From a bacterium (lineage in GTDB: Bacteria; Patescibacteriota; Minisyncoccia; UBA6257; WO2-44-18), in contig JAUSKF010000004.1 in NCBI GenBank assembly GCA_030646995.1, positions 84,404 to 148,403 of the forward strand: a stretch of 64,000 nt of DNA, given 5' to 3'. The translations under genes and the position numbers were made by a program. The notes beneath the pieces were generated by a model. It did no database searches. It saw only the letters and a list, made by a program, of their open reading frames with translations, and had not been told where the DNA came from. This document shows, piece after piece, positions 22,490 to 49,945 of this stretch; positions within the stretch are counted from its first letter, which is position 1, and the number at the start of each line of letters is the position of its first letter.

Positions 22490-23044
22490 CTATTCGGAGA
22501 TCTCCTCAATCTTAGCAGAAAGAGAAACTTCAATCTCGCTGTTTGTTTTATCTACGGACTTTTGCGCCTTTTCGCGCGATTTGAATTTCTGATCTTCGGT
22601 AATTAATTTTTCCTTGAAAGCGGACTCAATCTTTTTATTTACATCATCACGCCCGGCGCGGACTTTTATCTTGGCCTCCTCGGTCAGACGCTTGGCCAAT
22701 TTAGTCAATTCTTCACGGCGTTCATCCGTCAGGGCCGGCAAATTAATCCGGATAAGATTACCGTCGGAATTAGCGGTTAATCCCATCCCGGAAGTTTCAA
22801 TAGCCTTAACCACCGCGCTCAAGGATTCTTTATCCCAGACGTTGATATCAATTTCACGGGGAGGAAGAATGCTGATTGCGCCAAGTTGCTGAACAGTAAA
22901 ATCCTGATCCATATACCGGACTTTCAGGTTATCCACCAGTTTTGGGCTGGGCCGGTTGGTACGGACTCCGGAAAGTTCATTTTTCAGATAATCCACGATC
23001 GCTCTTAAATTTTTCTCGAAATCTTTTATTAGTTGTTCTGTCAT
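22490..23044 (-). CDS. frr: ribosome recycling factor
   Basis: Canonical RRF length and motifs (VRTNRPSPKLVDNLKV, LPPREIDI). Confidence 0.95.
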   Translation of the reverse strand: MTEQLIKDFEKNLRAIVDYLKNELSGVRTNRPSPKLVDNLKVRYMDQDFTVQQLGAISILPPREIDINVWDKESLSAVVKAIETSGMGLTANSDGNLIRINLPALTDERREELTKLAKRLTEEAKIKVRAGRDDVNKKIESAFKEKLITEDQKFKSREKAQKSVDKTNSEIEVSLSAKIEEISE

Positions 23045-23102: not shown

Positions 23103-23529
23103 TCATGCGGCGGGGTAAGCTCGCATCAGCTTGTCGATGCCGCACCAGTTCTCCTGGTCCAGCAGGATGAAATCCAGGACCCACTTTCCCGTATCGCTGT
23201 TATAGCCCAAGAAAGGAACACGGCGCTTGCCTTGCGGATCATTCCAAACAGTACCGGGAAAAATCAGATAGAAATTCGTCCAGCTATGCGGAATGAAATT
23301 CTGACGCTCGAGCAACGCCTCAGCGTGTCTCTGGCCAAGATTGGCATCCAGCTCAAGAGCGCGGATGGCCATACGGTTACCATGGATCAGTCCTTCTTCA
23401 GGATGATGAAACCCGCAGATATCCATAACCACCAGATCATGCTCAACCTCGACATCCCTTTTCAATTTCCAGCCCCTCTCGCGCATGTCGCGGGCGAAGG
23501 GCTTGTCGGCAGTGATGACTGCGTACATG
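23103..23529 (-). CDS. hypothetical protein (142 aa), GC-rich relative to surroundings
   Basis: Trimmed to the ATG preceded by GAGGAGG; the longer N-terminal extension in the ORF track runs through GC-rich non-coding DNA. Confidence 0.45.
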
Positions 23530-23584
23530 AACGCCTCCTCAAATGTGCCGTCGGCTACTATAACACAAACGCCTAGGATAAAAA

Positions 23585-23615
23585 ATACCCCCGCCAGCAT
23601 GCTGCTGGACGGGGG
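23585..23615 (-). terminator. rho-independent terminator (minus strand) ending a ~450 nt GC-rich non-coding segment
   Basis: Read on the minus strand: CCCCCGTCCAGCAGCATGCTGGCGGGGG followed by tattttttatcc. Confidence 0.45.
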
Positions 23616-24061
23616 TTTGAGTTTGCGCCGCAATGGCAGCAACTTCGGACAGACGACCCGATCAACAATCGGGAGCCTTTTCCGGAAACTGCCTGCGGCA
23701 GTACATAAAAATTTATTAAAGAACCCCGCTCGGTTCCCGGCGACTTTGGGGAGATGTCGCTTTGGGGGAGGTGCTCGCCGGTCGCTTATCGCTCGTATGC
23801 CACTGCTGCCACCAGAGCAACAGCTCACGCCTTAGAGGCCGCGATCGCATATGAATTAACGAGCCAAGTACCGGCGTCTCGGGTTTTCGGGAGCCCGAGC
23901 GGGGCGGATATACTTTCTGATTTGCTGTAAGCAATTTTAGCAAGAAATCTTCTGCTAGTCAATGGCTCCGCTATTTGCAGACAATCGGCAAAAAGTAGAT
24001 CAAAACACCCGTAAAGATGGTGAGTAAGATTATTCCAAAAGCTTTGTCCATTACTTTAATT

Positions 24062-27986: not shown

Positions 27987-28328
27987 TTATTTTTCTATAG
28001 TTAAAAGATTCAAACGTTTTTGTTTCAAAAAATTCTGCGGCAACATACGCTTCACGGCCAACATCAAAACTTTCTCCGGAGATTTTGCAAAAGCCTCCTG
28101 GTAAACCTGCTCTTTCAAGTGACCCATATAGCCAGTGTGGCGATAGTAAATCTTTTGAGTCATTTTCCGACCGGTGACTACAATCTTCGAAGCGTTCTTA
28201 ACAACCACCTTATCTTTTCCGGGGTTGCGTGGCTGATAATCAGGATGCATTTTGCCCTGCAAAATCTGGGCAATCTGTGATGCCAAGCGTCCTAATTTCT
28301 GATCTTTTGCGTCAATTACGTATTGCAT
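27987..28328 (-). CDS. rplM: 50S ribosomal protein L13
   Basis: YYRHTGYMGHLK motif; canonical length. Confidence 0.95.
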   Translation of the reverse strand: MQYVIDAKDQKLGRLASQIAQILQGKMHPDYQPRNPGKDKVVVKNASKIVVTGRKMTQKIYYRHTGYMGHLKEQVYQEAFAKSPEKVLMLAVKRMLPQNFLKQKRLNLLTIEK

Positions 28329-28354
28329 TGTAGGATATTCTTATTGTTTAAACG

Positions 28355-28368
28355 TTTAAATATTTAAA
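28355..28368. promoter_or_regulatory. palindromic TTTAAATATTTAAA intergenic motif (1 of 5) upstream of rplM
   Basis: Exact 14 nt self-complementary motif, ~27 nt upstream of the start codon, in a 55 nt spacer. Confidence 0.4.
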
Positions 28369-28383
28369 GATATGATATATGAG

Positions 28384-28731
28384 TTACTTCACAAACTCAA
28401 TCACCGCCATCGGGGCGGCATCTCTCATGCGGGCCTTGGCCAACTTAGTGATGCGCAAGTAACCGCCGGCGCGATTCTGATAACGAGGCGCGACGTCAAA
28501 ATAAAGCTTCTTGGCAGATTTCTTAGGCAAAGCGGCAAGCAAGCGTCGAAGTGATGCTAATTGCTGCTTTTTGGCGATGGTAACCATTTTTTCCACCATC
28601 GGGCGAATTGCTTTGGCGCGCGCAACCGTAGTCGAAATCTTTTCTTTCATAATCAAATTATTAGCCAATCCTTGCAGGAAAGACTTTCGACGACCCATCG
28701 TACGATTAAATTTTCGCGCGTGCTTTGCCAT
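28384..28731 (-). CDS. rplQ: 50S ribosomal protein L17
   Basis: MAKHARKFNRTMGRRKS... canonical L17. Confidence 0.95.
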   Translation of the reverse strand: MAKHARKFNRTMGRRKSFLQGLANNLIMKEKISTTVARAKAIRPMVEKMVTIAKKQQLASLRRLLAALPKKSAKKLYFDVAPRYQNRAGGYLRITKLAKARMRDAAPMAVIEFVK

Positions 28732-28757
28732 TGTAGTATATTTCTATTATTTAAATG

Positions 28758-28771
28758 TTTAAATATTTAAA
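28758..28771. promoter_or_regulatory. palindromic TTTAAATATTTAAA intergenic motif (2 of 5) upstream of rplQ
   Basis: Exact 14 nt motif in the 45 nt rpoA-rplQ spacer. Confidence 0.4.
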
Positions 28772-28776
28772 CATCT

Positions 28777-29559
28777 TTACTCTTCTTTCTTCTTTTTCTT
28801 AGAGGCCTTTTTCGCTTTCTTTTCCTCTCCTTCTTCTGCAGCAACCGCAGACGCCTCTACTTCTTTGACTTCCACACCGGAAATCTTAACAAAGTGATCC
28901 TGCAAAATATTACTGGACTTTCTCAAAGCGGAAGATGGGGTGATACTGCCGTCGGTTGCGATAATCAAGCGGAGACGGTTGTAGTCAGCGCGCTCCCCTA
29001 CCCGCATATTTTCTACCGAAAAATTTACCTGTACTACCGGAGAGAATAAAGCGTCGATAGCGATAACACCAATCGGCAACTTATCGCTCTTACGGGATTC
29101 AACCGGCAAATAACCCAAACCCTTCTCCACGGTGATTTCCATATCTAATTCAGCATCCTTGCTGGTCAAGGTAGCAATGTGAACGTCGGAGCTAATCAGG
29201 TCAACTTGAGAGTTGGTCTTGATGTCGGACGCAGTCACAACTTTTTCTCCCTTAATCTTTAAAATCAAAACCTGAGGCTCGTCGGTGTGAATTCTAAAGC
29301 GAACTTTTTTCAAATTTAAAGCTACTTCCACCATGTCCTCCTTCACTCCTTCAACGGTAGAAAATTCATGGCTGGCTCCTTTGATTTTTACTTGAGTAAT
29401 CGCGGCGCCCGGAAGAGAAGAAAGCAAAACACGACGCAAAGCATTGCCAAGGGTTAAACCATAGCCACTGTACAATCCCTCAATTTCAAAAACCCCCTCT
29501 TTATCGGTTTCCGAGACCTTTTTGATTCCAACCGTCTCACTTAAATATTGATATTCCAT
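28777..29559 (-). CDS. rpoA: DNA-directed RNA polymerase alpha subunit (N-terminal domain only; no alpha-CTD)
   Basis: Alpha-NTD motifs (GYGLTLGNALRRVLLSSL, DALFSPV); 260 aa ending in an acidic/lysine tail in place of the ~80 aa HhH C-terminal domain. Confidence 0.9.
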   Translation of the reverse strand: MEYQYLSETVGIKKVSETDKEGVFEIEGLYSGYGLTLGNALRRVLLSSLPGAAITQVKIKGASHEFSTVEGVKEDMVEVALNLKKVRFRIHTDEPQVLILKIKGEKVVTASDIKTNSQVDLISSDVHIATLTSKDAELDMEITVEKGLGYLPVESRKSDKLPIGVIAIDALFSPVVQVNFSVENMRVGERADYNRLRLIIATDGSITPSSALRKSSNILQDHFVKISGVEVKEVEASAVAAEEGEEKKAKKASKKKKKEE

Positions 29560-29586
29560 AAGTTTTTTATTCTTTATATTTTACCT

Positions 29587-30201
29587 CTATTTACTATAAA
29601 AGTCAACCACAAGGTTCACATCAAACGGGATGTCGAAATCCTTAGGAGCGGAAAGCATCTTTCCCTCTTGTTTGTCAGCATCGACAGCCAACCAAACCGG
29701 AGCTTCGTATTTCTTTAGTTTTTCTCCCAAATCTTTGAAAAGCGGGTGTTCTTTAGACTGCGGACGAATGGAAACAATGTCTCCGGCTCGAAGCTGAATT
29801 GAAGGAATCGTGGCTTTGCGTCCATTCAACATAATATGGCCATGACTAACTAACTGGCGGGCAACGGAACGGGAAGCAGCAAATCCAACGCGATAGACCA
29901 CGTTATCTAAACGGCTTTCCAACAAGCTGATAATCAACGGACCGGTGACGCCGGGGTTACTGGTAGCTCTTTTTACGATCAAACGCATCTGATTCTCACG
30001 AATACCATAGGTATAGCGGATTTTTTGTTTCTCTTTCAGTTGAGTTCCAAATTCAGAAAGCTGTTTGCTAAAAGATTTACCGTGAGCTCCCGGTTTATGC
30101 GGCCTGCGTGAAGTAACGCATTTTGGAGAATTACAACGCTCCGCTTTCAAAAAAAGCTTTGTGCCTAGCGAACGTTCTCTTTTTTCTCGTGTATCAAACA
30201 T
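29587..30201 (-). CDS. rpsD: 30S ribosomal protein S4
   Basis: S4 domain (VSHGHIMLNGRKATIPSIQLRAGDIV). Confidence 0.95.
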   Translation of the reverse strand: MFDTREKRERSLGTKLFLKAERCNSPKCVTSRRPHKPGAHGKSFSKQLSEFGTQLKEKQKIRYTYGIRENQMRLIVKRATSNPGVTGPLIISLLESRLDNVVYRVGFAASRSVARQLVSHGHIMLNGRKATIPSIQLRAGDIVSIRPQSKEHPLFKDLGEKLKKYEAPVWLAVDADKQEGKMLSAPKDFDIPFDVNLVVDFYSK

Positions 30202-30227
30202 GGATGTATATTTTTATAATTTAAAAA

Positions 30228-30241
30228 TTTAAATATTTAAA
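30228..30241. promoter_or_regulatory. palindromic TTTAAATATTTAAA intergenic motif (3 of 5) upstream of rpsD
   Basis: Exact 14 nt motif in the rpsK-rpsD spacer. Confidence 0.4.
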
Positions 30242-30243
30242 CA

Positions 30244-30696
30244 TTAAATGCGGCGGACTTTGGGTGGTCTTGGACCGTTATGCGGAATCGGGGTTACGTC
30301 TTTAATAGAAAGGATATTGAAGCCATGGTTCGCCAAAGTGCGGACCGCGGAATCCCGGCCTCCGCCTACTCCGCTGACTACCACGTGCACATTGACCGGA
30401 CCGGACTTTTTCAACTTCTCAGCAATCACGGCGATTATCTTCGAAGCGGCAAAAGGAGTGGCCTTTTTCGGACCATTGAAACCCAAAGATCCGGCAGTGC
30501 TCCAAGCGAGTATATTACCTTTATCATCCGATACCGAAACTAGGGTGTTGTTGTAGGAAGCTTTGACGAAAACTTTGCCGGTATCAAATTTTTTGGAAAC
30601 CGACTTCTCGCTCGCCTTTGCAACAGCGGCTTCAGTCTTCTGGCCCTCTTTGAGGACTTCTTCGGTGGTTTGTTTTGTTGGTACTTTTTTACCCAT
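30244..30696 (-). CDS. rpsK: 30S ribosomal protein S11
   Basis: GKVFVKASYNNTLVSVSDDKGNILAWSTAGSLGF canonical. Confidence 0.95.
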   Translation of the reverse strand: MGKKVPTKQTTEEVLKEGQKTEAAVAKASEKSVSKKFDTGKVFVKASYNNTLVSVSDDKGNILAWSTAGSLGFNGPKKATPFAASKIIAVIAEKLKKSGPVNVHVVVSGVGGGRDSAVRTLANHGFNILSIKDVTPIPHNGPRPPKVRRI

Positions 30697-30717
30697 GTTG
30701 GTTGTGTATTTTTAGTA

Positions 30718-30731
30718 TTTAAATATTTAAA
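30718..30731. promoter_or_regulatory. palindromic TTTAAATATTTAAA intergenic motif (4 of 5) upstream of rpsK
   Basis: Exact 14 nt motif followed by a partial second copy (cgtttaaatatt). Confidence 0.4.
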
Positions 30732-30741
30732 CGTTTAAATA

Positions 30742-31125
30742 TTATTTCAACTCGTTTTTACGTTTTCCACTGCCAGCGGTCTTACGAACATTGCCACGCA
30801 CAGTGCGGGAGTTAGTCTTCGTCCTTTGGCCACGGACCGGGAGCTTGCGGGAGTGACGCATACCCCGATATGACTGCAAATCTTTCAATAAATTAATGTT
30901 CTGCTTGATGATTTGACGCAACTCACCCTCAACTTTAAAATTTTTCTCTATATGCGCCTGAATCCGGTTTACTTCCTCAGGGGTAAGAGTCTTGGCACGC
31001 TTGCTCGGATCAATTTTTACCTTCTCTAAAGTCTGGATTGCCAGAGTCCGGCCGATGCCGAAAAGATAAGTCAGCGCTATATCAATACGCTTGTTGTCTG
31101 GAATATTTGATCCGGAGATTCTCAT
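30742..31125 (-). CDS. rpsM: 30S ribosomal protein S13
   Basis: MRISGSNIPDNKRIDIALTYLFGIGRT canonical. Confidence 0.95.
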   Translation of the reverse strand: MRISGSNIPDNKRIDIALTYLFGIGRTLAIQTLEKVKIDPSKRAKTLTPEEVNRIQAHIEKNFKVEGELRQIIKQNINLLKDLQSYRGMRHSRKLPVRGQRTKTNSRTVRGNVRKTAGSGKRKNELK

Positions 31126-31143
31126 TGAAGTATATTTTATTAT

Positions 31144-31157
31144 TTAAATATTTAAAG
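31144..31157. promoter_or_regulatory. palindromic TTTAAATATTTAAA intergenic motif (5 of 5) upstream of rpsM
   Basis: Exact 14 nt motif in the rpmJ-rpsM spacer. Confidence 0.4.
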
Positions 31158-31177
31158 ATTTAAACATGGCGCTTCAC

Positions 31178-34431: not shown

Positions 34432-36195
34432 CTATTCTACAATTCCCCTGATACGGCGAACTCCAGCGGAAACTGCCTCTTCTTTGGCAATCTTAAACTT
34501 CCCTATCGTTAGGGTGTTAGACACGTGGGGACCGCCGCAGAATTCTTTGGAAAATGCCGAAGGAATATCGTGGCCGACATAATAAACCTTCACGCGCTCG
34601 GGGTATTTATCCAAAAAGAAATGGAGCGCCCCGGTTTTCGCGCCTTCTTCTTTCGCCATCTCCTCAAAACCCACCGGCAGGTCTTTCTGGATCTGCTCAT
34701 TCACTAAGTCCTCCACTTCTTTAATTTCTTCGACTGTCAGCTTCCGCGGGAAGATAAAATCAAAACGAGTACGCTCTACGGTGATATCAGAGCCTTTTTG
34801 CTGAACTTCATTGCCCAAAACTTTCCGAAGCGCCGCCTGCATCAAATGAGTCGCAGTGTGCAAACGAGTTACTTTCTTTAATTCCTCGGCGTCTTTCGCT
34901 TTCAATTCTCCAGTGTCCAGAAGCAGACCATGACCGCCGAATTTCTTTTCTACGCCCGCGCGAGAAATTTCTTGATGCTTTTTAAATTCTTCATCAAACT
35001 CGGTGCGATCCAATCCCTTGCTCGCCTCCGGAGCCAACTCTTTAATCAACTCAAATGGCAGACCGAAAGTTTCGTAAAGATAAAAGCCTTCTTTAGAACT
35101 GATGGCGGGGTATTTTTTAATTTCTTTCACGCCGAGCGCGATTGCCTGCTCGAACTTATCTTTCTCCGCCTCCAAGACCTCCAAAATCCTCAACTCTTTA
35201 ACTTCCGGATAAATATTGCCGAATTTTTCTTTCACCCACTCCACCGCCATCCCAAAGAGATTCCCGTGAACATCGTGGATGGTCTGATAAGCCAAAACGC
35301 GGCGAAGTAGGCGACGCAAAATATATCCTGCCTCTTTATTAGAGGGACGCACGCCGTCGGCGACCAAGAAAATGGAGGAGCGAAGATGGTCGGCGAGAAT
35401 ACGAACAACTCGATCTTCAATTCCCGGCGCCATCTCGCGGATCTTGGCGATTAGATCGCTGAAAACATCTGTCTCAAAAACACTCGGCGCGCCCTGCATC
35501 ACCGTTACCAACCGCTCAAAGCCCATGCCGGTATCAATGCCAGGGGTTTTCAAATTTTCCAGAGTCTTGTCGGACTTTTGGTAGAACTGATTGAAAACAT
35601 TGTTCCAAATCTCCACCCCCTCGCCTTTTTTCGCCTCCTCGGCAGTCTTAGCTACATAAATTTCAGTGGTCGGCCCGCAAGGACCTTCACTGCCGGTTGG
35701 ACCCCAGAAATTGTCGGCTCGGCCACGTTTAAATATTTTCTCCACCGGCATGCCGAGTTCTTTGTGCCAGATATCAAAAGATTCGTGATCATATGGAACT
35801 GCTCCCTCCCCGGCAAACACGGTGACATAAACCAATTCCGGATTCACTCCGAGAACTTTCGTGACATATTCATACGCCCAATGAATCGCTTCTTTTTTGA
35901 AATAACCGCCAAAAGAAAAATTGCCGAGCATTTCAAAAAAAGTGAGATGAGTTTTATCGCCGACTTCATCAATATCGGAAGTGCGGAAACATTTCTGGAC
36001 AGAAGTCGTACTTAAACTGCCGAAATCTTTTTGCGCGTTCAGTTCTCCGATAAAATATGGCTTGAACTGCTGCATACCGGCAGTCGTCAAAAGCACCGAG
36101 GGGTCGGTTGGCAACAATGACGAAGACGGCACGACAGCGTGCCCTTTGGACTTGAAGAAGTCCAGAAATGATTTACGAATCTCCTCGGAGGTCAT
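34432..36195 (-). CDS. alaS: alanine--tRNA ligase (catalytic + editing domains; lacks C-terminal C-Ala domain)
   Basis: N-terminal class II core (FLDFFKSKGH, TTAGMQQFKPYF); editing-domain HTATHLMQAALRKVLG and CGGPHV zinc motif. Confidence 0.9.
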   Translation of the reverse strand: MTSEEIRKSFLDFFKSKGHAVVPSSSLLPTDPSVLLTTAGMQQFKPYFIGELNAQKDFGSLSTTSVQKCFRTSDIDEVGDKTHLTFFEMLGNFSFGGYFKKEAIHWAYEYVTKVLGVNPELVYVTVFAGEGAVPYDHESFDIWHKELGMPVEKIFKRGRADNFWGPTGSEGPCGPTTEIYVAKTAEEAKKGEGVEIWNNVFNQFYQKSDKTLENLKTPGIDTGMGFERLVTVMQGAPSVFETDVFSDLIAKIREMAPGIEDRVVRILADHLRSSIFLVADGVRPSNKEAGYILRRLLRRVLAYQTIHDVHGNLFGMAVEWVKEKFGNIYPEVKELRILEVLEAEKDKFEQAIALGVKEIKKYPAISSKEGFYLYETFGLPFELIKELAPEASKGLDRTEFDEEFKKHQEISRAGVEKKFGGHGLLLDTGELKAKDAEELKKVTRLHTATHLMQAALRKVLGNEVQQKGSDITVERTRFDFIFPRKLTVEEIKEVEDLVNEQIQKDLPVGFEEMAKEEGAKTGALHFFLDKYPERVKVYYVGHDIPSAFSKEFCGGPHVSNTLTIGKFKIAKEEAVSAGVRRIRGIVE

Positions 36196-36324
36196 TCAAT
36201 GATTTTATAGATTCCAAAGACAATTCTCAAGTTAATACAATATGGTAATCCTACGCTACGCTCAGGATTGCTACTGCTAACCAAATTTTCTGCTTCTTTG
36301 AATTGAAAATTTGGAGCAGTAGGT

Positions 36325-36358
36325 AAAAAAATCCCCTCCGGTTTTTACACCGAAGGGG
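36325..36358 (-). terminator. rho-independent terminator of GC-rich cassette
   Basis: Read on the minus strand: CCCCTTCGGtgtaaaaaCCGGAGGGG followed by attttttt, immediately 3' of the stop at 36380. Confidence 0.5.
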
Positions 36359-36379
36359 AACTGGCCTCGTGAACTATGC

Positions 36380-36799
36380 CTACACGAGCATGTATTTGAC
36401 GGCGGTCTCCATCACCAGCGACGCCGCCTTCAGGCTAGTGAGCCGGAGCTCACCCACCCAGAAGATCGGGGTGCCGGAGTACGACAGTTGGATCTTCAGC
36501 TCCTGCTGAAGAACCAACTCCTCCCCGGTCGGCATCTGGATACGATACTCCAGAATGCCGGTCGGGATATCCCCGAACGCGCTCTCTTCGGGCGCGCACC
36601 GGAGGTTGGCCATGACCCGCACTCCGCTCTCAAAGAAGAGAACGAAGTCCGGGTCGCACTTCAGCGCCCGCTCGACACCCTCCACGATGGAGGGCGCCAG
36701 CTTCTGGATCTCCGCGAATTCCTTCGCGAAGGTCCGCCCCGCCGGGGAAAGCTCCGACAACGACCTGACTGCCCGTCTGCTCGTCGTGGTGTTGCTCAT
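36380..36799 (-). CDS. hypothetical protein (139 aa), GC-rich cassette gene
   Basis: ORF with downstream terminator; ~60% GC against a ~45% core. Confidence 0.5.
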   Translation of the reverse strand: MSNTTTSRRAVRSLSELSPAGRTFAKEFAEIQKLAPSIVEGVERALKCDPDFVLFFESGVRVMANLRCAPEESAFGDIPTGILEYRIQMPTGEELVLQQELKIQLSYSGTPIFWVGELRLTSLKAASLVMETAVKYMLV

Positions 36800-36875: not shown

Positions 36876-37259
36876 CTACAGCATACGCAGGCGACCCGCC
36901 ACCGTGATGGCAATAATCACCGGCTTGACCTCCGGCCCACGATTCATCCGGTAGGCCCACTCTCCGGAACTGGTGTTCCGGACCCTGACCGTACACGCGC
37001 CCGACGGCGTTCTAGTGCTATCGGGTTTCAGGATCCAAACCCCAATCTCCAGCTGGAGATTGGCGCCGTGGCCGGTCTGGAAGCTCGAAAAGACGAGCTT
37101 CGATTTCAATCGGCCACCAACCTTCAGAAGATCGTCGATCTGCTCGACGATTTTCTGTTTCAGCCGCCCCCAGCCCGTCATGAGCTGGTGCTGAACCTCG
37201 TCGGCGGCAATGCCAATCCGAGGCCGGTCGTAGAGCGTAAAGCATGTGTTGACGGCCAT
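36876..37259 (-). CDS. hypothetical protein (127 aa), GC-rich cassette gene
   Basis: AGGAGGAGG RBS; promoter TTGACA-17-TAGACT upstream, inside the repeat. Confidence 0.5.
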   Translation of the reverse strand: MAVNTCFTLYDRPRIGIAADEVQHQLMTGWGRLKQKIVEQIDDLLKVGGRLKSKLVFSSFQTGHGANLQLEIGVWILKPDSTRTPSGACTVRVRNTSSGEWAYRMNRGPEVKPVIIAITVAGRLRML

Positions 37260-37339: not shown

Positions 37340-37540
37340 TATTTGTCAAGGGCTCATGGCTTCCTACCCCAAGCTCCTCATAAGACCTTCGGCGGCCAAA
37401 CCGCGACTTATTTAAGCTATTTTTTCGGCCCTAAAATTGGGGTGCGCCAAAATAGCTAAACGCACGGGGCTACGCCTCGGAATCTTATTCGGAGCATTGG
37501 GGTAAAGCCTGATTCGCTTTGTTAAAACTGGAACCAAGAA
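37340..37540. repeat. GC-rich intergenic repeat, copy A (~200 bp)
   Basis: Aligns along its length with 46440-46690 and partially with 57790-57875. Shared blocks include gaccttcggcggcc, ggccctaaa, cgcacggggctacgcctcggaatc, ttcgcttt and aagggctc. Confidence 0.55.
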
Positions 37541-37544: not shown

Positions 37545-39305
37545 CTACTCGCTCACTTCTACGGCCCCGCCCATGCCCGGGTTTAAATGGTCGTGATACT
37601 TCCAAGAACCTGCCTTTTCAAATACAAAAGAATAAGACTCCCCCTCGCTTAAACCGCCCAGGGAATCAAAGCCCGGTAAAACTAAATGGGTTGGGTGCGA
37701 CGCCGAAGCCGGCCAGTGTGGACGAATATCTTTATTCAACCAGGTAACTTTCGCGCCAGCCGCAACTTGAATCATCGGAGGCTCAAATCCGGTGGTAGTG
37801 ATAAAGACCGTAATTGATTCCGGCTGAAGAACGGAGGTAGTTTTAATGGGCACATGGCCGATTGCTTCATTGGCCGGAACAGAATTCAACGCTTTGGGAA
37901 CTTCAATCGATTTAGGATTTTCTAAAGCTCTAAAAAATTCTTCAATAGTAGAAAGAAGAATCTTAACTGTCCGCAGGGAAGCCGCGATGCTTTCCGGAGC
38001 CTCTTCTCTTTCGATTGATTTAGCCAAGGCAACAATTCTTCGCTCGGCCTCGCTTAGCAAAGAGAATAGTTTCGGATTCTGCTCTTTAGTAAAGTCGGAC
38101 TTATTTACCTCGGAAAGCCAAAAGTCATATACCTTATTAATATTTTCCAAATCACTCTCGGCATCCGATATATCCGGATTCAGCTGATTAATCGCATTTT
38201 TTAAAGCGGCCTGGGCGGCGGTAGCCTGTCCGAAAGCTCCTCCATAATTACCTTCTTCTAAAAACTTCTCGGCTTGCAAAAGACCGAATTTTGCCCGCTC
38301 CACCAGCTCCTTGGGAGCGTTTTTTACGGATACCCGCTCACTAATCATCTCTTCCACCCTGGCCAGCAAGTCTTGCGCTTCGGCCATGGCCTGTTTGGCC
38401 CGTTCTTCGCTGATGCCTCCGGCATCTTCAATCTTGGATAAAATTCTCTGGCGAATAATATTTAATTCGTTACGCAATGCCGAGGTAAGCACTTTTTCTC
38501 GAACTTCATCAATAAGCCGTAATCGACGCAAACGATCTCCGGACAACCCGCTTAAATCCCCCAATTCCCCGCCAGCCAATACTAATCCCTCCAATTTTCC
38601 ACCAAATTTCAAAAGTAAATCCTCGCGTAGAAAAGAAACGGATTTTTCCGCTTCTCCTGAAAGCGCTTCTCCTAAACGATCCGCCAAATCGGCGGCCCGC
38701 AACTCTCTGAAGGGATCGTTAAGCTCCTGAACCTCCAAAAGAAATTGAGCCTTGAAGTCTCGTGGGTTAACCAACCGAATCGGCGCCTGCGCCAAAGCAG
38801 CTGCCAAGGAATCAACCGCTTTTTCTATTTTCTCTAATGAAGCTTTTTCATTCGAATATTTATTGGACAAATCTTCCAGCAATCGGAAGTGGCGCAATCC
38901 CTGTGAAATCAAATCCTCCGAAATAGCCGACAATTTGGAGCTTCCGAGCTCGTCTTTGATGGCCTCGAGATTTTCCATCAGCCGGGAAAGGCTATCCAAA
39001 TAACTATCCAATGCGCGATCAATGGCAAAAAGATTGCCGGTGGCAATTTCCTCCAGCTTCTTAAGTTCTGCCGCTTTTTCGTTCAAAACATTCAACTCCA
39101 ACTGGGCACGATTGCTGGCGCTAGCCGAGAGTAACTTGCGGAAACCCCGTCCCCATTCTTTCAAAAAATAGAAAGGATTCGAAGGCAAAAGACCGGAGCT
39201 TTGGATGCCCAAATCACCCCCTTCTTGAGCCAAAAGGAATGCCTGCGGGACCGTTATAGACAATGCAACGGCCGCCGTTATAAGTATCTTATGTAGTTGT
39301 TTCAT
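37545..39305 (-). CDS. secreted coiled-coil-rich protein with C-terminal cupredoxin-like domain
   Basis: Trimmed to the internal ATG giving signal peptide MKQLHKILITAAVALSITVPQA. C-terminal KVTWLNKDIRPHWP...YHDHLNPGMGG resembles a plastocyanin-like fold but has no Cys. Confidence 0.55.
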   Translation of the reverse strand: MKQLHKILITAAVALSITVPQAFLLAQEGGDLGIQSSGLLPSNPFYFLKEWGRGFRKLLSASASNRAQLELNVLNEKAAELKKLEEIATGNLFAIDRALDSYLDSLSRLMENLEAIKDELGSSKLSAISEDLISQGLRHFRLLEDLSNKYSNEKASLEKIEKAVDSLAAALAQAPIRLVNPRDFKAQFLLEVQELNDPFRELRAADLADRLGEALSGEAEKSVSFLREDLLLKFGGKLEGLVLAGGELGDLSGLSGDRLRRLRLIDEVREKVLTSALRNELNIIRQRILSKIEDAGGISEERAKQAMAEAQDLLARVEEMISERVSVKNAPKELVERAKFGLLQAEKFLEEGNYGGAFGQATAAQAALKNAINQLNPDISDAESDLENINKVYDFWLSEVNKSDFTKEQNPKLFSLLSEAERRIVALAKSIEREEAPESIAASLRTVKILLSTIEEFFRALENPKSIEVPKALNSVPANEAIGHVPIKTTSVLQPESITVFITTTGFEPPMIQVAAGAKVTWLNKDIRPHWPASASHPTHLVLPGFDSLGGLSEGESYSFVFEKAGSWKYHDHLNPGMGGAVEVSE

Positions 39306-40272
39306 AGTAATTCCAGCTACACCTTGTTGAGAGCAGAACTTGCCTGCCGAAGGCATGGCTGGAGGCAAAAAGCTATCTAAAATGGGTAGATTTGGACTCT
39401 GCCCAACAAAAAAGGCCTTAACAGACCTTAGGGATACTATATCACAAAGGGTATCGGAAAACAATCCTCTTTGGGGAATAAAAAAGCCCCCGTCTGCGTG
39501 AGCAAGCGGGGGTAAATCTGGGTCGCGTGGTAGCGGGTTGGGGGCGTAAGCCTCGCCATTGTCCTGCCCATCGGCAGGCATCGCGCTACCGACGCAACCT
39601 TTTCGAGAAAACTGCGCGCAGTCCGCGGTGTGGCCCCACCGCGGTGTAGAGGCCACTCATTCGCCTCTATGTTCCGGCGAGCCCCTGAGGGTACTCTATT
39701 CTCTCCGCGCCATCCAATTAAGCGGAGTTCTATAAGGCCGGAATTGACACGCACCACTCTTGTGATGCGGCTGCCAGGGTGGCTGCGCGCGCCCACCTGC
39801 ACCAAAAAGGATCCTTGTCCCTCGCGTAGATCATCAGACCTTACGCAAGGGACTTGTCCCATACATTAGAAATGTACGGTCTCTAACACTACAGTCATTC
39901 ACTAAAAGCACTTCGTTTTTCTAGCTTTATGGAACACACTGCGAAGCCCTAATCCCCCTTTATAGCGGGATGGGCAAGCCCGCCTGAGGCGGGTAAATAA
40001 AAGACCCTTTTTGATGCGGGTGGACTACTTAACGTTCTAGGAGAGATTATAGCGTATAACCTAATTCTTGTCAAGCCCCCACACCAAACGAGAAGTTTGG
40101 CTGAATTCTTTTGCTTCTCGTTGTGGTGTGGGGGTCAAGGGCTCCGGCATGTTCCTCGAAACTACTCCCTGCGCTTTGGAAAAAAACGCCTCCGAGACGT
40201 TCCTTGAAGATGTTTTCCCAAGATAGTAACCGACCGGTGTTATCCCGCGAGATAACACCCCATCGTTGACTA
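39306..40272. other. ~1 kb GC-rich, hairpin-dense non-coding block
   Basis: No credible ORF; ORF-track entries here are Arg-rich translations of GC-rich DNA. Multiple long perfect stems, e.g. 40078-40136, 39968-39998 and 39630-39680. Confidence 0.3.
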
Positions 40273-40311
40273 TAAAAACAAAAATCCCCTACCTTCTGCA
40301 GAAGGTAGGGG
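40273..40311 (-). terminator. strong rho-independent terminator (11 bp perfect stem)
   Basis: Read on the minus strand: CCCCTACCTTCtgcaGAAGGTAGGGG followed by atttttgttttt. Confidence 0.55.
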
Positions 40312-40411
40312 CCGGATGACGTGTTCGCGCTAGTTTAGCGGGCGGCATCGCTTGGGATCAATCATCGCTGTTAGTTGCCCGCAAGGATCGCGACGCGAAC
40401 ACGCTGATTCG

Positions 40412-41014
40412 TTACTTGTTTGTTGAATCCTCAGCGGGAGTGTTCTCTCTGCGGATGCGATCCACGATCGCCTTGCGCTCCCGCCGGTTTCTTTCTGCCT
40501 CTTGATAGCCACACTCCACTTTTTCCAAATCGACCCTATCCCAATACGCCATTCGCTCCCAAACCTCGAACGGGACGCGCACATAGACATCGTCCCCGTC
40601 GGGGCTGATGAGTTGCGCCACAGACTCCCGCGGATCGACGAGCTGAAAGAGCTTGACCCTCTTCACCCGGTAACCGTCATAGTCGAGCATCTGTCGAAGC
40701 GTCAACTCCGGCCCGCGACGCGCCCGGAAAAATTCACCGAACTCGCCGAAGTACCAGATGCTGAACGCAAGCGCGAAGACCCCGGTGGAAATTAGCGTTG
40801 CAGGATGCGTGCCTACCGCCTTCAGCTTCGCCAGCGGCTTTCGGAAAGGGTACATGGCCACACCCACAACCTTCATGAAGGCGTTGCGCAGCCAGCCATT
40901 CCTCTGCTCCAGCATTCCTTCCAGCTCATCAATCCGCCTCTGCTTCTCGGTGCACAACTCCACATAATCCGGCTGGTCGACATACTTGGAACCGTCCTGC
41001 GGGGCTTCACTCAC
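40412..41014 (-). CDS. hypothetical single-TM protein, GC-rich; probable GTG start
   Basis: AGGAGG 6 nt before GTG at 41014; the ATG at 41053 lacks an RBS. TM segment LISTGVFALAFSIWYFGEF. Confidence 0.45.
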   Translation of the reverse strand: MSEAPQDGSKYVDQPDYVELCTEKQRRIDELEGMLEQRNGWLRNAFMKVVGVAMYPFRKPLAKLKAVGTHPATLISTGVFALAFSIWYFGEFGEFFRARRGPELTLRQMLDYDGYRVKRVKLFQLVDPRESVAQLISPDGDDVYVRVPFEVWERMAYWDRVDLEKVECGYQEAERNRRERKAIVDRIRRENTPAEDSTNK

Positions 41015-41347
41015 AGCTTTCCTCCTTGTAAGGGACTGGCGAGATATTAGCATGTCAAACTGAATTCGTCAAACTATAAAAATCCCTGCCGGCAGGCAGG
41101 CCCTTCAATAAGAACAAAGCGAACGAGGTTACTTTTTGTTCTCGTAGCTCCTCAAAGCAGAGGCGAAGGCGTGTTGGTTCAAGGAACATCTCGGAGGCGG
41201 TTGGGCTTGGCTCGTTCGTTGTCCATATTTACGAACGAACAACCGCCGAGAGAGAAGAAAACCCCGCCGTTGGAGTGGGGTTATTCTGTGTCCGAGAATC
41301 AATACGCCAGAGCCCTTTGCGAGAGAATAAAAGTAGCCGAGTGAGCC

Positions 41348-42652
41348 CTAGTAGCCTTCTAAGGTGTGTGCCTTCCCGTGCCCCCGAATACGAACCAAAG
41401 CCTTAGCTTCAATCTGCCGAATACGCTCACGAGTAACGCCGAATTCCTTGCCCACTTCTTCCAGAGTGTGGGTCACGCCATCATCCAAACCAAAACGCAT
41501 GCTCAAAATCTTCTGCTCGCGGGGAGTCAGGTCAACCAAAATTTCTTTGATTTTGTCACGGAGTAAAGTTTGAGAAGCTACCTGTGAAGGAGTCAGGTTG
41601 CGGTCGTCGGGAATGAACTCCGAAAGGGTGGAATCCTCATCATCATCGCCTACTGGAGATTCCAAAGAAACGACGTCCTGGGAAATTTTCTGAATGTGGC
41701 GGATCTTTTCTACCGGTATATTCATCTCAATAGCAATCTCTTCCGCCAAAGGCTCACGGCCCAGCTCTTGTAGAAGACGGCGTTTGGCCTGCGTGTATTT
41801 AGAAATTGTTTCCACCATATGCACCGGAATACGAATGGTGCGGGATTGGTCGGCTAAAGCGCGGGTAATGGCCTGGCGAATCCACCAAGTGGCATAGGTA
41901 GAAAATTTAAAACCACGGCGATAATCAAATTTATCGACGGCACGGGATAAACCTATGTTACCTTCCTGCACCAAATCCAAAATGCTCAAATTCGGAGAGC
42001 GATTCACATACCGCTTGGCGATAGAAACCACTAAACGCAGGTTGGCCTGAATGAAATGACGGCGGGCTTCTTGGTCCCCTTTTTCAATTTTCTTCGCCAA
42101 CTCCCTTTCTTCCTCGCCTTTCAAGAGTGGGGTCTTACCAATTTCTTTTAAATACATCTGTACAGCGTCAGGCAAATGCTCGCCTACGGTCGCCTCCTCC
42201 AATTCTTTAGTGCTAATCTCTTCTTTCGGAAGTTCAATTAATTGATTGGTTTCTATTACTTTAATCTGGGACTCTTCGAGTTTGTCGTAAATCTCTTCTA
42301 AAAAGCTGATATCGTCTTCAACATGCGGAAAATAATTCAAAACCTCGCCGTCGGTCACGAAACCGCGACTTCGGCCTCTTTCGATAAGCTCACCCAAGGC
42401 CTGCAAATCAATTTCCCGTTTCGCGGCTTTTTTGCCGGTGAGTTTACCCTGTTTTGCATTAGATTTCTTCGAGAACTTCTCCACCTTCTTGGACTTCATA
42501 GTAATCCCCTTAGCCTTTCTAGACGCCTGCCTACCGGTAGGCAGGGCTTTTTTAACGGTTTTTTTGACCGTCTTTTTAGCTATCTTCTTAACTTTTTTAA
42601 GCTTGCTCCGTGAGAGCGAAGCAACTTTACGGGGTTTCAATTTTTTCACCAT
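41348..42652 (-). CDS. rpoD: RNA polymerase sigma factor RpoD (sigma-70) with lysine-rich N-terminal extension
   Basis: Region 2 (IAKRYVNRS...[16 protein letters not shown]), region 4 HTH ([24 protein letters not shown]). Confidence 0.9.
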
Positions 42653-42674: not shown

Positions 42675-44426
42675 CTATGCCAAAGTCGCTTGTTTCTCTA
42701 AATTCTGCATTTCTTGAAGTACTTTGTCAAAGGCAGAGAGGGCCGCTGTAAGCTCAGCCTCATTATTCTTCTGCTCGGCGAGTTTAATAGACCAGAGCAA
42801 TTCCTGCTTATGGGAGCGCAAATTTTCCATCTTTAACTGACGCACCAACTCCAATAACTCGGCTTTGGCCTTAACTTCGTCGGATTCAAAGTCCAAACCG
42901 GATCGTAAGCTGACTAAATCAGCCACCGGCTTCAGTTCAACATTCAACGACAAAGATTTCGGGTCCCTACCGTGCTCCAAAATAGCCCTATAACTTTCCG
43001 GAATATGCTCAATGTTATTTTTTATATCTTCATAGAAAGCCGGATGATTTAACACTAGCGAAATAGTCCGCTGGCTAATCAGATCCTTGCGTGATAATTG
43101 CGGAAGTTTGGCTTTTTCGGCGGGCTCCACAGCCGAGTCGGTAAATTTCGGCGCCTCATCTTTGATGTTCAACATTTCTTCCTCCAGCGTTGTCTGAGCG
43201 ACACCACTCTGATCGGAAATAATTTTCAACCAATGCGAACGCTCCACTGGGCTAGCTATCACCCGAAGTCGGGATAAAAGCGCCCGTACATTCTTTTTCC
43301 AAACCAGCGTGTCGGAACGATTAGATATTTGATGCTGACTAATCAAATATTCCATCGCCGGCTTAGCCTCGGAAACCAGCTTCACCATCATTCCGGGATT
43401 CGCCTGCGCGATATCTGCCGGATCCTTCACGCCAAGATCCGCCGGCACCGACAAAACTTTAATCGAAAAATCGGCGGCATTTGCCAAATCAATCGTGCGT
43501 TCGGCGGCCATTTTTCCGGCGGCGTCCTGATCGAAAGAAAGTACTAAAGAATCCGAAAGGCGTTTGAGATTACGGAGGTGATCAACGGTGAGCGCCGTTC
43601 CGGATGTCGCCACCAAATTCTTCACTCCGTCCTGCCAAGACATTATCAAGTCCATCTGACCTTCCACTAGTACGGCGGTACGGCTGTCGCGGATAAAATT
43701 CTTGGACTTATCCAGGCCATAAAGTAGCTTCGATTTATTGAAAATTGGCGTTTCGGGCGAGTTCACATATTTCCCTAAATTTTCCGATTCAAATCCCGGC
43801 ATAATTCTTCCCGTAAAAGCGATGGTTTTGCCGAAAGAATTAATCAACGGAAACATTATCCGATTACGGAAACGGTCCCGAAAAGTACCGCGGTCGGTTT
43901 TCAGAGAAAGTCCGGCTTTTTCAATCGCGGTGATTGCATAGCCTTTGCCGAGTAAAAATCTGGTGAGGACTTCGGGTTGGTCGGGAGCGAACCCGATTTC
44001 AAACTCTGCTATAGTTTCCGGCTTCAGGCCTCGGGATTTTAAATATTCGCGGACGGCGGGGGTGAGTTGGGATTTGAAAAAGTCCTTAGCTAAGCGATTA
44101 GCTTCATATAAAACATTCAGGGCTTTCTGATCAGGTCCGGAAATTTGCCCGATATCCACGCCTGTTTTTTCCGCGAGAATTTTCAAGGCTTCAAAGAATT
44201 CTATATTTTCAAAACGCATCAAGAATGCAAAAATATCTCCTCCGACATTACAACCGAAACAATGCCACATCTGTCGGTCAGGCGAAACGATAAAAGACGG
44301 GCTCTTCTCTTTGTGAAACGGGCAATGGCCTTTGAGATTCTTTCCGGCAGGATTCAACGGCACGTAAACTCGGATAAAATCCGCGATATCCAACTTATCT
44401 TTTATCTGCTGGGTGTTATCCGACAT
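42675..44426 (-). CDS. dnaG: DNA primase
   Basis: CHC2 zinc finger ([11 protein letters not shown]...[11 protein letters not shown]); TOPRIM (LVEGQMDLI); lies upstream of rpoD. Confidence 0.9.
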
Positions 44427-45306: not shown

Positions 45307-45336
45307 ACAAGAAAAGTCTAACGCAAATTCCGGTAA

Positions 45337-45374
45337 TAAAAAACCTCTGCAATTACGCAGAGGCTTTGTTTGTT
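45337..45374. terminator. bidirectional rho-independent terminator
   Basis: aaaaaaa-CCTCTGC-aattac-GCAGAGG-ctttgtttgttt. Confidence 0.5.
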
Positions 45375-45375
45375 T

Positions 45376-46431
45376 CTAAAATGGCTTTATTTGCTTCAGC
45401 AAATCGGAAGCCGGATTAAACCTGAACTTCTTCACCGGTTCGAAGAAGTCACTACATTGCTCAAGCGCAAAGACAATCTCTTTCGCTTCTTCGCTAGTCA
45501 AACTTTCCTTCATTCCCTTCTCCAAAACTTCGATAGTGTATTTGGGGGAAAGAAGCTCGGGATCTCGGCCGGGCACTCTCTTGGCCCGCTCTTCGAGCAT
45601 CCGCCTCGGCAACTCTTTCGCAAGGAACCAAAGCGCATCGCGAAGTTTTGCATAAGTCTCAGAGCTTGTGTCAGCGTTGCATTCTTTCACGGCTCGGAGA
45701 ACCGACCGGAAAGAAGGCGGCCTCTTAACTGATGCCGCGCGGCAGGCCAACACTCCGCCGATGCCTCCGCCATCCGCCCTTTCTGGCGGAGGCGGATCCG
45801 CTTCAAGCACTTCGCAAGATGGCAGGAGAAGGATTGCCTCGGAATCAATCTCCTTCTCTTCGGGCTCGGCCGATGCCAGCCTGACATCGGAAACCAACAG
45901 CGAACAAGGCAGATTCAAATTTTTCAAAGATTGCGGGATGTGGTCGTAGGAAATAACATGTACCAATTTTCCGGCGACAATCAGCGCTTGCACCAGCTTG
46001 AAGAACGGCTCACCGCCATCCCCTGTGCAAAGCACTACTCCCTGAACGCGAGCATCGTTAGCCATCAGCAAACCGATTTCGCAAAGGGCCAAATCCGCAG
46101 AATCCTTCCCTTGTGGAACCAGAATCACGGAAGTGAAGTCGCGATCAATGAGGCACTGCATCATCCGAGAATTATCTTTGCGCATCGCCACCGGCTTCTT
46201 CCGAATGTCAGCGCTCTCTCCATGCACAACAGACTTCGGGGCAGACAGCGCAGCATCTGCGCGAATCAAAGGTCCAAATTGACCGGCAATTCGATCAGCT
46301 TGATCAATCGCTAGATTCAAAACCTTTACATCCGTCAGGCTGCAACCATCATCGTGCCTTGCCTGAATAGTCAAATTTTCAACGTCCATCAAGATGACAC
46401 TGCCCTTGAGCGTACTCGTCTCCGCATGCAT
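45376..46431 (-). CDS. NYN-domain (LabA-like, PIN-like nuclease) protein with C-terminal extension, GC-rich
   Basis: VILMDVENL...DSADLALCEIGLLMANDARVQGVVLCTGDGGEPFF matches the NYN D...EN...D...GDGDF pattern. Start trimmed to the ATG preceded by GGAGAGG; the longer ORF runs into the repeat. Confidence 0.55.
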   Translation of the reverse strand: MHAETSTLKGSVILMDVENLTIQARHDDGCSLTDVKVLNLAIDQADRIAGQFGPLIRADAALSAPKSVVHGESADIRKKPVAMRKDNSRMMQCLIDRDFTSVILVPQGKDSADLALCEIGLLMANDARVQGVVLCTGDGGEPFFKLVQALIVAGKLVHVISYDHIPQSLKNLNLPCSLLVSDVRLASAEPEEKEIDSEAILLLPSCEVLEADPPPPERADGGGIGGVLACRAASVKRPPSFRSVLRAVKECNADTSSETYAKLRDALWFLAKELPRRMLEERAKRVPGRDPELLSPKYTIEVLEKGMKESLTSEEAKEIVFALEQCSDFFEPVKKFRFNPASDLLKQIKPF

Positions 46432-46439: not shown

Positions 46440-46690
46440 CTCTCCAAGACAGCGGTGATATCTTACTAATTTTTTGCCAAAAAGTAAAGGGCTCGCTCGG
46501 TCTTTGCATAACTTCTCACTCGACCTTCGGCGGCCATGCCGCGACTCACTTAACGAGATTTTTCCGGCCCTAAAGGGACACTTCGTTCCCGAAAAAATCT
46601 CTATTCGCACGGGGCTACGCCTCGGAATCTCGTTCGAAATTATGCAAAGGCCTCATTCGCTTTATAAAAAATCTCCGCAAAAATGCGGAG
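46440..46690. repeat. GC-rich intergenic repeat, copy B (~250 bp) carrying the promoter of the NYN gene
   Basis: Homologous to copy A. On the minus strand TTTACT-17-TAAGAT promoter at the left end, aligned with TTGACA-17-TAGACT in copy A. Confidence 0.55.
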
Positions 46691-47394: not shown

Positions 47395-47500
47395 GGTTAG
47401 TAAACCCAAATCGGTATTTAGTATAAGGTATCCGGTATTAAGTATGCCCTCGCTCAAATACGGAATACTTCATACTTGATACTAAATACTAAAAATCCGG
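47395..47500. repeat. AT-rich palindromic intergenic repeat (GTATTAAGTAT family), copy b
   Basis: ccggtattaagtatg ... atacttcatacttgatactaaatactaaaaa. Confidence 0.4.
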
Positions 47501-47521: not shown

Positions 47522-47592
47522 TCGGGGCGCCGGGAATCGAACCCGGCCTATACGCACCCCATGCGTACGTACTGCCGATATACTACGCCCCG
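47522..47592 (-). tRNA. tRNA-Pro (anticodon GGG), CCA not encoded
   Basis: Hand-folded cloverleaf on the minus strand: acceptor CGGGGCG/CGCCCCG, D-arm GTAT-ATCGGCA-GTAC, anticodon stem TACGC/GCGTA with loop ATGGGGT, T-arm CCGGG-TTCGATT-CCCGG, discriminator A. Confidence 0.85.
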
Positions 47593-49845: not shown

Positions 49846-49849
49846 ATGT

Positions 49850-49945
49850 GATTAGTATTAAGTATTTTGTATTAAGTATCAAGTATAATTCGCATACTGA
49901 ATACCGGATACTTTATACCTAATACTACTAAAATAGCCCCAATGG
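49850..49945. repeat. AT-rich palindromic intergenic repeat (GTATTAAGTAT family), copy c
   Basis: gtattaagtattttgtattaagtatcaagtata ... atactgaataccggatactttatacctaatacta. Confidence 0.4.

Follow-up and report, generated by a model that had tools for sequence, protein, structure and literature searches.

A probable conserved, structured RNA gene outside the described families in a non-coding block of a Patescibacteria genome

Introduction

New biology has come more than once from large orphan RNAs, among them OLE, ROOL, GOLLD and raiA. In the Patescibacteria (candidate phyla radiation) genomes are tiny and non-coding DNA is scarce, and we know of almost no RNAs beyond the universal ones that have been studied experimentally in them. 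The present work concerns a stretch of 64,000 nucleotides (nt) from a member of this group (contig JAUSKF010000004.1), hereafter the window, and within it a block (39306-40411) between the genes of two proteins of 213 and 586 amino acids (aa), which an initial annotation had described as non-coding, hairpin-dense and rich in guanine and cytosine (GC), and had taken for a candidate large structured RNA or for decayed mobile DNA. In what we hold to be the probable reading, the block consists of minus-strand transcription signals arranged around one previously undescribed, stand-alone and clade-restricted structured RNA gene.

Among the closest described systems, OLE RNA is conserved throughout, and one of its partners is a membrane protein encoded next to the RNA. 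It is found in anaerobic and extremophilic Firmicutes and is reported to work as a ribonucleoprotein (RNP; PMC9723947). The RNA of the window resembles it in being a large (~600 nt), intricately folded and apparently independently transcribed non-coding RNA (ncRNA) of the kind whose function has resisted assignment, and in having a small membrane-protein family (the 213-aa gene, with 1-3 paralogues) directly upstream in five loci; this link to a membrane protein is not constant, since the upstream gene differs in the related loci L164, L171 and L181, and unlike OLE the window RNA has no Rfam OLE match, belongs to another phylum and is highly variable in its middle. ROOL and GOLLD are reported to form RNA-only assemblies (PMC12286853); they share with the window RNA the size class of ~500-800 nt, the many hairpins and the lack of a known enzyme partner, whereas the window RNA has no Rfam match, no phage or tRNA neighbourhood and no match in the phage, viral or plasmid collections searched. 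The smtA motif ("Soda Lake RNA") is a large (>350 nt), complex ncRNA candidate of one narrow clade that was judged too long for a cis-regulator (PMC11109978); like the window RNA it was found as a long, relatively GC-rich intergenic region, although organism and sequence are unrelated and the window RNA has an explicit consensus promoter, a terminator and a mosaic history of its domains. A literature search, within the library that could be searched, found no description of such an RNA, and we rate it as a new family within the general kind of large orphan structured bacterial ncRNAs, the unusual traits of which are, in our rating, the mosaic history of its modules and the second copy of one module in the 3' untranslated region (3'UTR) of an mRNA.

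Results

The proposed RNA gene (39480-40038, ~559 nt from the predicted start to the U tract) lies on the minus strand, the coding strand for almost all genes of the window; its promoter, start, fold and terminator are conserved and it is non-coding. It carries the generic features of a stand-alone ncRNA, namely a promoter and a Rho-independent terminator of its own, absence of coding, and structure-preserving conservation. The promoter (40046-40074), TTGACA-17 nt-TATAAT, agrees with the sigma-70 consensus at 12 of 12 positions in the promoter scan; an exact TTGACA-N16-18-TATAAT occurs once in the 64 kb of the window (40074-40046) against 0.01 expected, and the exact form TTGACA-N16/17-TATAAT, followed after 7 nt by AGAACGTT, is kept in the window and in L163, L164, L171, L082 and L181. 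From this promoter transcription would start at AGAACGUU (40038), a 5' end common to the window and its homologues, and stop in the U tract (39480-39486) of a terminator (39480-39512) composed of the hairpin CCCCCGCUUGCUCACGCAGACGGGGG (39512-39487; inverted repeat I12, also seen in the helix map) and CUUUUUU, and a hairpin of a C run and a G run with its U tract stands at the same place in every homologue. The large unclassified RNA first proposed is supported, in the form of a conserved, promoter- and terminator-bounded RNA without a match in Rfam, but it is not one RNA of 1.1 kb: it fills about half of the block, and the remainder is made up of a separate 3'UTR element and the leader of an mRNA, both of them conserved, together with a spacer and a pair each of promoters and terminators. 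The GC richness also stands in part, with a peak of 57-60% at 39400-39850 only, whereas the block as a whole reaches 52% and the RNA 56%, against 46% for the window.

RpoD-anchored scans of genome and metagenome contigs gave 160 loci, none with the RNA by nhmmer, and the RNA-bearing contigs were reached via relatives of the 213-aa and 586-aa proteins. Homologues occupy the same locus in at least five other Patescibacteria lineages: L163 (586-aa protein identity 73%; an nhmmer match of E = 3e-90 that spans promoter, RNA and leader), L164/L165 (65%; a shortened RNA), L171 (55%; a full RNA), L181 (46%; a full RNA) and L082, where the 586-aa gene is not visible, the rpoD DNA is 82% identical and the contig ends 52 nt into the RNA. 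From start to terminator the complete copies measure 559 (window), 627, 433, 818 and ~470 nt. The 5' domain is 84-91% identical among the window, L163, L171 and L181, against 46-73% protein and 64-72% DNA identity of the adjacent 586-aa gene in the same comparison, and a profile of this domain finds the RNA only in the homologue loci named (among 181 loci and the window), always as one copy per locus at a fixed position, with no second copy in the window. That a locus spends 0.4-0.8 kb on a strongly promoted RNA better conserved than its protein neighbours suggests a function important to the clade.

Rfam release 15 (4227 families) was searched by cmscan over the whole window at the gathering threshold, over 39100-40600 at E<=10 with permissive filters, and over the five homologue loci at E<=1. 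At the gathering threshold the window has one match, a tRNA-Pro at 47522-47592; the segment 39100-40600 gives only chance-level matches well below gathering scores (one of them, to NsiR1, happens to display the terminator hairpin and U tract of the RNA), and the homologue loci give none. OLE, ROOL, GOLLD, raiA and HEARO have no covariance-model match in the window or in the five homologue loci. The RNA of the block is very probably not a transfer-messenger RNA (tmRNA), RNase P RNA, 6S RNA, signal recognition particle (SRP) RNA, OLE, ROOL or GOLLD, and no T-box model matches it; for RNase P RNA, tmRNA and SRP RNA this agrees with the failure of the initial annotation to find their motifs, and Rfam and ARAGORN concur.

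On the minus strand the segment 39460-40045 folds at -271.6 kcal/mol, with z = -10.5 against 100 dinucleotide shuffles (plus strand z = -6.8), and in the 5' domain no fewer than 8 conserved G-U pairs fit the minus strand only, as they would be A-C mismatches on the other; sliding 200-nt z-scores are uninformative here because they cut the long-range helices. The stems that had been cited for the block are all present (40076-40134, ~20 bp with one bulge; 39975-39990; 39623-39644; 40286-40311). The predicted fold of the RNA has three parts, a 5' domain, a central hairpin domain and a 3' three-way junction just before the terminator, of which the first evolves slowly and the GC-rich second fast. 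In the 5' domain (39791-40025) a long-range helix P1 of 25 bp (40025-40000 with 39816-39791) closes a junction of hairpins P2-P6, with an invariant 14-nt loop; the invariant core is UUCCRUAAAGCYAGWAAAWCGAAGNGCUUU. The same architecture arises from independent minimum-free-energy folds of four homologues, and in a four-sequence alignment 97.6% of the pair cells are standard pairs (alifold, pair counts); four pairs, in P1, P3 and P5, change on both sides, among them an A-U to G-C double change of P1 in L181, also found in L164 when read by eye, and many changes are G-U/A-U or G-C/G-U transitions. The central domain (39614-39790), GC-rich hairpins closed by GCGCGCAG/CUGCGCGC in the helix map, has another length and another sequence in each copy. 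In L164 the RNA takes a natural minimal form: its 125-nt 5' domain keeps P1 and the invariant hairpin AAAGC-YAGWAAAWCGAAGN-GCUUU and has a large internal loop, but P2, P3, P5 and P6 are missing. Duplexfold of the full-length RNA gave no meaningful result for targets in trans, and a pairing of the P1 5' strand with the leader hairpin of the 586-aa gene (-21 kcal/mol) was set aside as not distinctive, since it ranks 8th of 52 leaders.

The 3' module (39520-39600, minus strand), with an A-rich linker in front, is the three-way junction, in which the stems Pa (GGUUGCGU/ACGCGACC) and Pb (GGUAGCG/CGCUACC) close the hairpins Pc (CCUGCC/GGCAGG) and Pd (GGCG-AGGCUUA-CGCC). A shorter RNA of ~290 nt stands at the same place in L168 and in L166 (to which L169 and L170 are identical), lineages whose 586-aa protein is 56-57% identical; it has a similar promoter context, TATAATCTCCCTTAGA, and an unrelated 5' domain, and its three-way junction and terminator can both be recognised as those of the longer RNA. 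The covariance model R1, built from these two modules, matches the window module with 28.6 bits (E 1.5e-4 under default filters and 1.5e-5 once these are off) and that of L171 with E 5e-4; apart from the A element described below, it has no credible match in the remainder of the window, nor in ~40 further rpoD loci of Patescibacteria. The 3'-module alignment A6 (five sequences) has 94% of its cells paired, and in 10 pairs both partners have changed, compared with 3.4+/-1.5 such pairs in shuffles and no more than 2 after sliding of the partners. The comparison with related genomes has in this way found a conserved RNA with pairing-preserving changes in the 3' module, whereas covariation in the 5' domain is not significant, because four of the five 5' domains are too alike. 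Viral contigs gave nine matches to a 3'-module motif, none confirmed by the covariance model, and none to a 5'-core motif; the phage and plasmid collections gave no blastn match to the RNA.

A second conserved structured element of the block resembles this module. The A element (40322-40401, minus strand) lies in the 3'UTR of the 213-aa gene, directly past the stop codon, and its outer stem of 10-12 bp, GCGUGUUCGCG/CGCGAACACG, encloses GCGGGC/GCCCGC (inverted repeat I10); R1 matches it with 18.5 bits (E 0.014, filters off). We count it as conserved because its first 35-44 nt are 93-97% identical to L082 (81% over the next 80 nt), against 38% for the adjoining protein. By its position between a stop codon and the terminator of the gene it may be likened to 3'UTR-embedded structured elements and to 3'UTR-derived small RNAs that share the terminator of the mRNA; its conservation far exceeds that of the coding sequence and, unlike them, it is a structural relative of the 3' module of a neighbouring stand-alone RNA, which is unusual.

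Discussion

The best-supported reading of these results is that the locus would encode a strongly promoted, stand-alone ncRNA restricted to one Parcubacteria-type subclade; the folded RNA of ~560 nt probably represents a functional RNA, new and confined to a small group of bacteria of ultra-small size. Its product would act as a free, stable RNA, in which the conserved unpaired loops and junctions would be contact sites for a protein or RNA partner and the variable hairpins tolerated expansions. We infer the ends of the transcript, its independence from the downstream gene and any partner, and a trans-acting, partner-binding RNA is favoured because invariant loops and junctions, expanding hairpins and exchangeable modules form the pattern of an RNP scaffold RNA. 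A wider reading, possible though doubtful, would see in it the first known case of a class of RNAs, large and modular, of Patescibacteria, RNP scaffolds or self-assembling, with a cellular role peculiar to these reduced and symbiotic bacteria. Such a class, proposed here as tentatively as its founding member, would combine an ultra-conserved 5' junction domain with a separable 3' module that may stand alone in a 3'UTR or, in sister lineages, be borne by another 5' domain, and one possibility is a link to the adjacent clade-specific membrane and secreted proteins. In either case the candidate RNA would offer defined ends, and it offers a testable fold and natural deletion and expansion variants; the minimal form of L164 and the module on another body in L166/L168 mark the essential parts, and the finding also shows RNA modules to be exchangeable between transcripts within a locus.

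Several points weigh against this reading. The ends of the transcript are placed by sequence signals only; the complete copies number only five (window, L163, L164, L171 and L181), with one fragment; and the distribution is narrow, the RNA being absent from ~40 other Patescibacteria rpoD loci and from L083, the closest by RpoD (81%) in the large-collection scans, where rpoD, the 586-aa homologue and alaS follow one another closely and both the 213-aa gene and the RNA are missing. As regards the structure, the four double changes of the 5' domain are reached by 64 of 500 shuffles, and the A6 alignment is of five sequences, fitted to the model structure and including the paralogous A element; the RNA ranks 4th of 108 equal-size minus-strand windows for fold z (10 shuffles each), so that hairpin density alone is not unique. 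Finally, evolution has been mosaic, in that L166/L168 have the 3' module with an unrelated 5' domain, and L181 keeps the 5' domain but R1 misses its 3' part.

The main rival to the stand-alone RNA, and an unlikely one in our judgement, is an attenuating leader: the RNA would be a long cis-acting leader of the 586-aa secreted-protein gene, its 3' module and terminator forming a riboswitch-like or protein-dependent attenuator of read-through, and, with the same low probability, the A element and its terminator would do likewise one unit upstream. In its favour, the RNA or its shorter version stands immediately upstream of the 586-aa homologue in 8 of 8 full-length loci (window, L163, L164, L171, L181, L166, L168 and L169/L170), the 3' module precedes an intrinsic terminator by 8-30 nt, in the classic layout of an aptamer and expression platform, this module is the part common to both RNA types, and the module-like A element also precedes the upstream terminator. 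However, a conserved TTGnnn-17-TGnTATAGT promoter and a leader intervene between the terminator and the 586-aa gene, and because that gene has these of its own we take the RNA for a separate unit; moreover, the best-conserved part is the 5' domain, 200-500 nt from the terminator, no alternative antiterminator pairing was seen by eye, a length of 430-820 nt with a freely varying middle is atypical of riboswitch leaders, and no Rfam riboswitch or T-box matches.

A reading of the block as mobile or foreign DNA in decay, a GC-rich island that was inserted and has no RNA function of its own, with hairpins left over from palindromic elements, seems highly improbable for its core, where the conservation of the 5' domain far exceeds that of the flanking gene DNA, and the initial annotation's suggestion to this effect fits only the 59-bp palindrome at 40076-40134. 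This near-perfect hairpin (stem of ~20 bp; inverted repeat I4; 40070-40140 with its flanks) lies between direct repeats gtcaag (40070-40075 and 40135-40140), that is, CTTGAC on the minus strand, and has the look of an insertion that duplicated 6 bp precisely at the -35 box. Palindrome and duplication are found in two of the six loci where the position is visible (window and L164), the others (L163, L082, L171 and L181) having a single CTTGAC and no hairpin. Such a palindrome with a 6-bp direct repeat in some loci only recalls insertions of the repetitive extragenic palindromic (REP) or miniature inverted-repeat transposable element (MITE) type, although it is single copy in the window and has precisely the position at which the -35 box is restored by the duplicated CTTGAC. 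This patchy distribution, the tightly packed L083, the free variation of the central domain and spacer, and the hairpin richness of other GC-rich stretches of the window also speak for mobile DNA; against it, promoter, start sequence and terminator are kept in every copy, helix substitutions keep pairing, the single copy has a fixed place and no viral, phage or plasmid counterpart, and family searches of the neighbouring gene products gave no match to transposases, integrases or defence families.

A known RNA (tmRNA, RNase P RNA, 6S RNA, SRP RNA or T-box) so divergent that the models miss it would also be quite unexpected. The RNAs of Patescibacteria can be unusual, the locus adjoins rpoD and, both read by eye, GGUAGCGCG in the module resembles the T-box core GGUACCGCG and GAUUUGACGGGG in L166/L168 resembles the 5' region of tmRNA; to this are opposed the Rfam results given above and the form of the molecule, 430-820 nt long with ends that are not paired together. 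ARAGORN found no tRNA or tmRNA in the block and no tmRNA in the window or six homologue loci, and the tRNA-like domain of a tmRNA was not found, the RNA ending unpaired, with no CCA-ending acceptor stem and no T-arm. The only candidate for a tag frame, GCU AGA AAA ACG AAG UGC UUU UAG UGA in the P4 loop, has no ending of the ...LAA type, and in the five copies the peptide would read ARKTKCF, ARKTKRF, ASKSKCF, ARKSKGFQ and ARKSKGFQRI with a shifting stop; the tmRNA idea, raised by this GCU...UAG UGA and by the L166/L168 motif, was rejected by ARAGORN and Rfam. For RNase P RNA there is no Rfam match, and the P4 motifs GGAAAGUCC and ACAGAA are absent from the sequence. 6S RNA is a rod of ~150-250 nt with paired 5' and 3' ends and a large central bubble; it too has no Rfam match here, and the multi-branch 5' domain, the unpaired 5' end and a 3' end that is a terminator belong to another form.

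That the block encodes one or more small proteins is barely worth entertaining, for although ORFs (open reading frames) of 40-141 aa can be drawn on both strands, none has a Pfam match, every homologue has 4-13 stops per frame (4-10 in each of the six frames of the RNA in the window copy), the longest ORF shifts frame and position between homologues (the sole long one in the window, 141 aa at 39437-39862, is not kept) and the indels are not multiples of three, in line with the non-coding character first attributed to the block.

Other Elements, Neighbouring Genes and Repeats

Two minus-strand features bound the block, the stop codon of the 213-aa gene (40412) and the ATG of the 586-aa gene (39305), and both ends are confirmed, because the two flanking translations are 100% identical to the annotated NCBI proteins Q7S83_02205 and Q7S83_02200 of the metagenome-assembled genome (MAG). 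Described earlier as the longest non-coding stretch, it does exceed every other gap in the window between ORFs of 120 aa or more, the runners-up measuring ~776, 727 and 592 nt. The order of genes on the minus strand is dnaG (42675-44426), rpoD (41348-42652), the 213-aa gene (40412-41053), the block, the 586-aa gene (37545-39305), two small GC-rich genes and alaS (34432-36195), and the nearest relatives of RpoD are in MAGs of Patescibacteria/Parcubacteria.

Between the A element and the RNA promoter two further elements precede the palindrome. The intrinsic terminator of the 213-aa gene (40276-40311, minus strand) is a perfect palindrome of 13 bp followed by AUUUUUGUUU (inverted repeat I1), scored by the terminator scan as 11 pairs with a 4-nt loop and conserved in L163 and L082; the stem at 40286-40311, first proposed as a terminator, is accordingly one, on the minus strand. 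The variable spacer (40141-40275, minus strand) contains a 12-bp palindrome (40236-40259; inverted repeat I6) and a weak hairpin with a U run, and is not present in L163, L082, L171 or L181, with partial similarity to L164.

Downstream of the RNA, the promoter of the 586-aa gene (39436-39464, minus strand), TTGTTT-17-TGTGATATAGT, has the -10 box TATAGT with an upstream TG (extended -10), as read from the sequence, and UUUGUGMUAUAGUAUCCC is conserved in the window, L163, L164, L171 and L181 and slightly diverged in L166 and L168 (UAUACUAUC / UAUAGUAUCGG). The leader (39306-39429) opens with a terminator-like hairpin, AAGGUCUGUUAAGGCCUU, and a U run (39429-39412; inverted repeat I2), which could serve as a 5' stabiliser or an attenuator, and a second hairpin (39312-39363) ends beside the AUG; nhmmer and blastn match the leader to L163, L164, L166 and L171. 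Within this promoter and leader (39306-39464), ~45 nt are nearly invariant in the closest five lineages and recognisable in L166 and L168.

The product of the 213-aa gene is one of a family of small, single-pass membrane proteins specific to the clade and conserved in the C-terminal half (GPELTL..YQGW..VRV..DVV..ERIRRGE), with 1-3 tandem copies between rpoD and the RNA in the five loci mentioned above (L166 3859-5494, L168 1903-2944, L163 558-1106, L082 582-1259 and window 40412-41053); searches of Pfam, NCBIfam, PADLOC and PHROGs gave no match to the family. A signal peptide can be read from the translation of the 586-aa product, which also has weak matches to DUF5667 and cupredoxin; searches of the neighbours with PADLOC, PHROGs and NCBIfam gave only weak sub-threshold matches to this gene and none for the others. 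The two GC-rich ORFs (~60%; 36380-36799 and 36876-37259) have no Pfam match, yet they are real conserved genes, with homologues (31-37% identity) downstream of the 586-aa gene in L163, L164 and L171, which means that GC-rich islands in this genome are more than mere junk.

In L164, L171 and L181 the gene directly upstream of the RNA is not of the 213-aa family. A Trp/Asn-rich small ORF (..YLNWDGERWSLNFNWLDNEWNDNDRLLRPR..) lies there instead (L164 64-252, L171 29-217, L181 128-346); it evolves like coding DNA, has an in-frame TAG in L164 and L171 and no stop before the terminator hairpin in any of the three, and the same domain (window 23121-23258) ends the 241-aa protein of the window (23103-23828). 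The idea that this Asn-codon-rich ORF is the template repeat of a diversity-generating retroelement was rejected because the substitutions follow a period of three and because the C-terminus of the 241-aa protein carries the domain again. L181 has, between this ORF and the RNA promoter (380-600), an extra unit made of TTGACA-17-TATTAT, ~170 nt of GC-rich hairpins and a strong terminator, which may be another small RNA; no homology was found between it and the central domain of the window RNA.

Other 586-nt windows of the minus strand also fold far below their shuffles (10 each): 45320-45905, which lies within an NYN-domain gene, 35944-36529 and 2542-3127 reach z -8.9 to -10.8, compared with -8.2 for the RNA on the same basis, and 20122-20707, over the intergenic gap 20136-20508, is weaker (z -6.4).

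The kinship that the initial annotation had supposed between motifs of the block and a repeat family of the window is not borne out, as the covariance model of the gggggcgtaagcctcgcc-containing element, that is, of the 3' module, does not match the repeat copies. This family, of ~130 nt on the minus strand, has copies at 37374-37505, 46512-46650 and 57788-57845 with 69-76% identity to the reference copy, each just downstream of a stop codon and containing GAGGCGUAGCCCCG and a long hairpin; part of it lies, with a promoter-like CCCTTGACAATTTTTGTCAACGGGTATACACTAT, in the third-largest gap between long ORFs (57181-57907, 727 nt). Two AT-rich repeats complete the picture, a 46-nt unit found five times in 28326-31167, in front of consecutive small genes, and units of the GTATTAAGTAT type at three intergenic sites (22414-22492, 47414-47491 and 49848-49927), both of which are probably shared promoter or UP-type regions.

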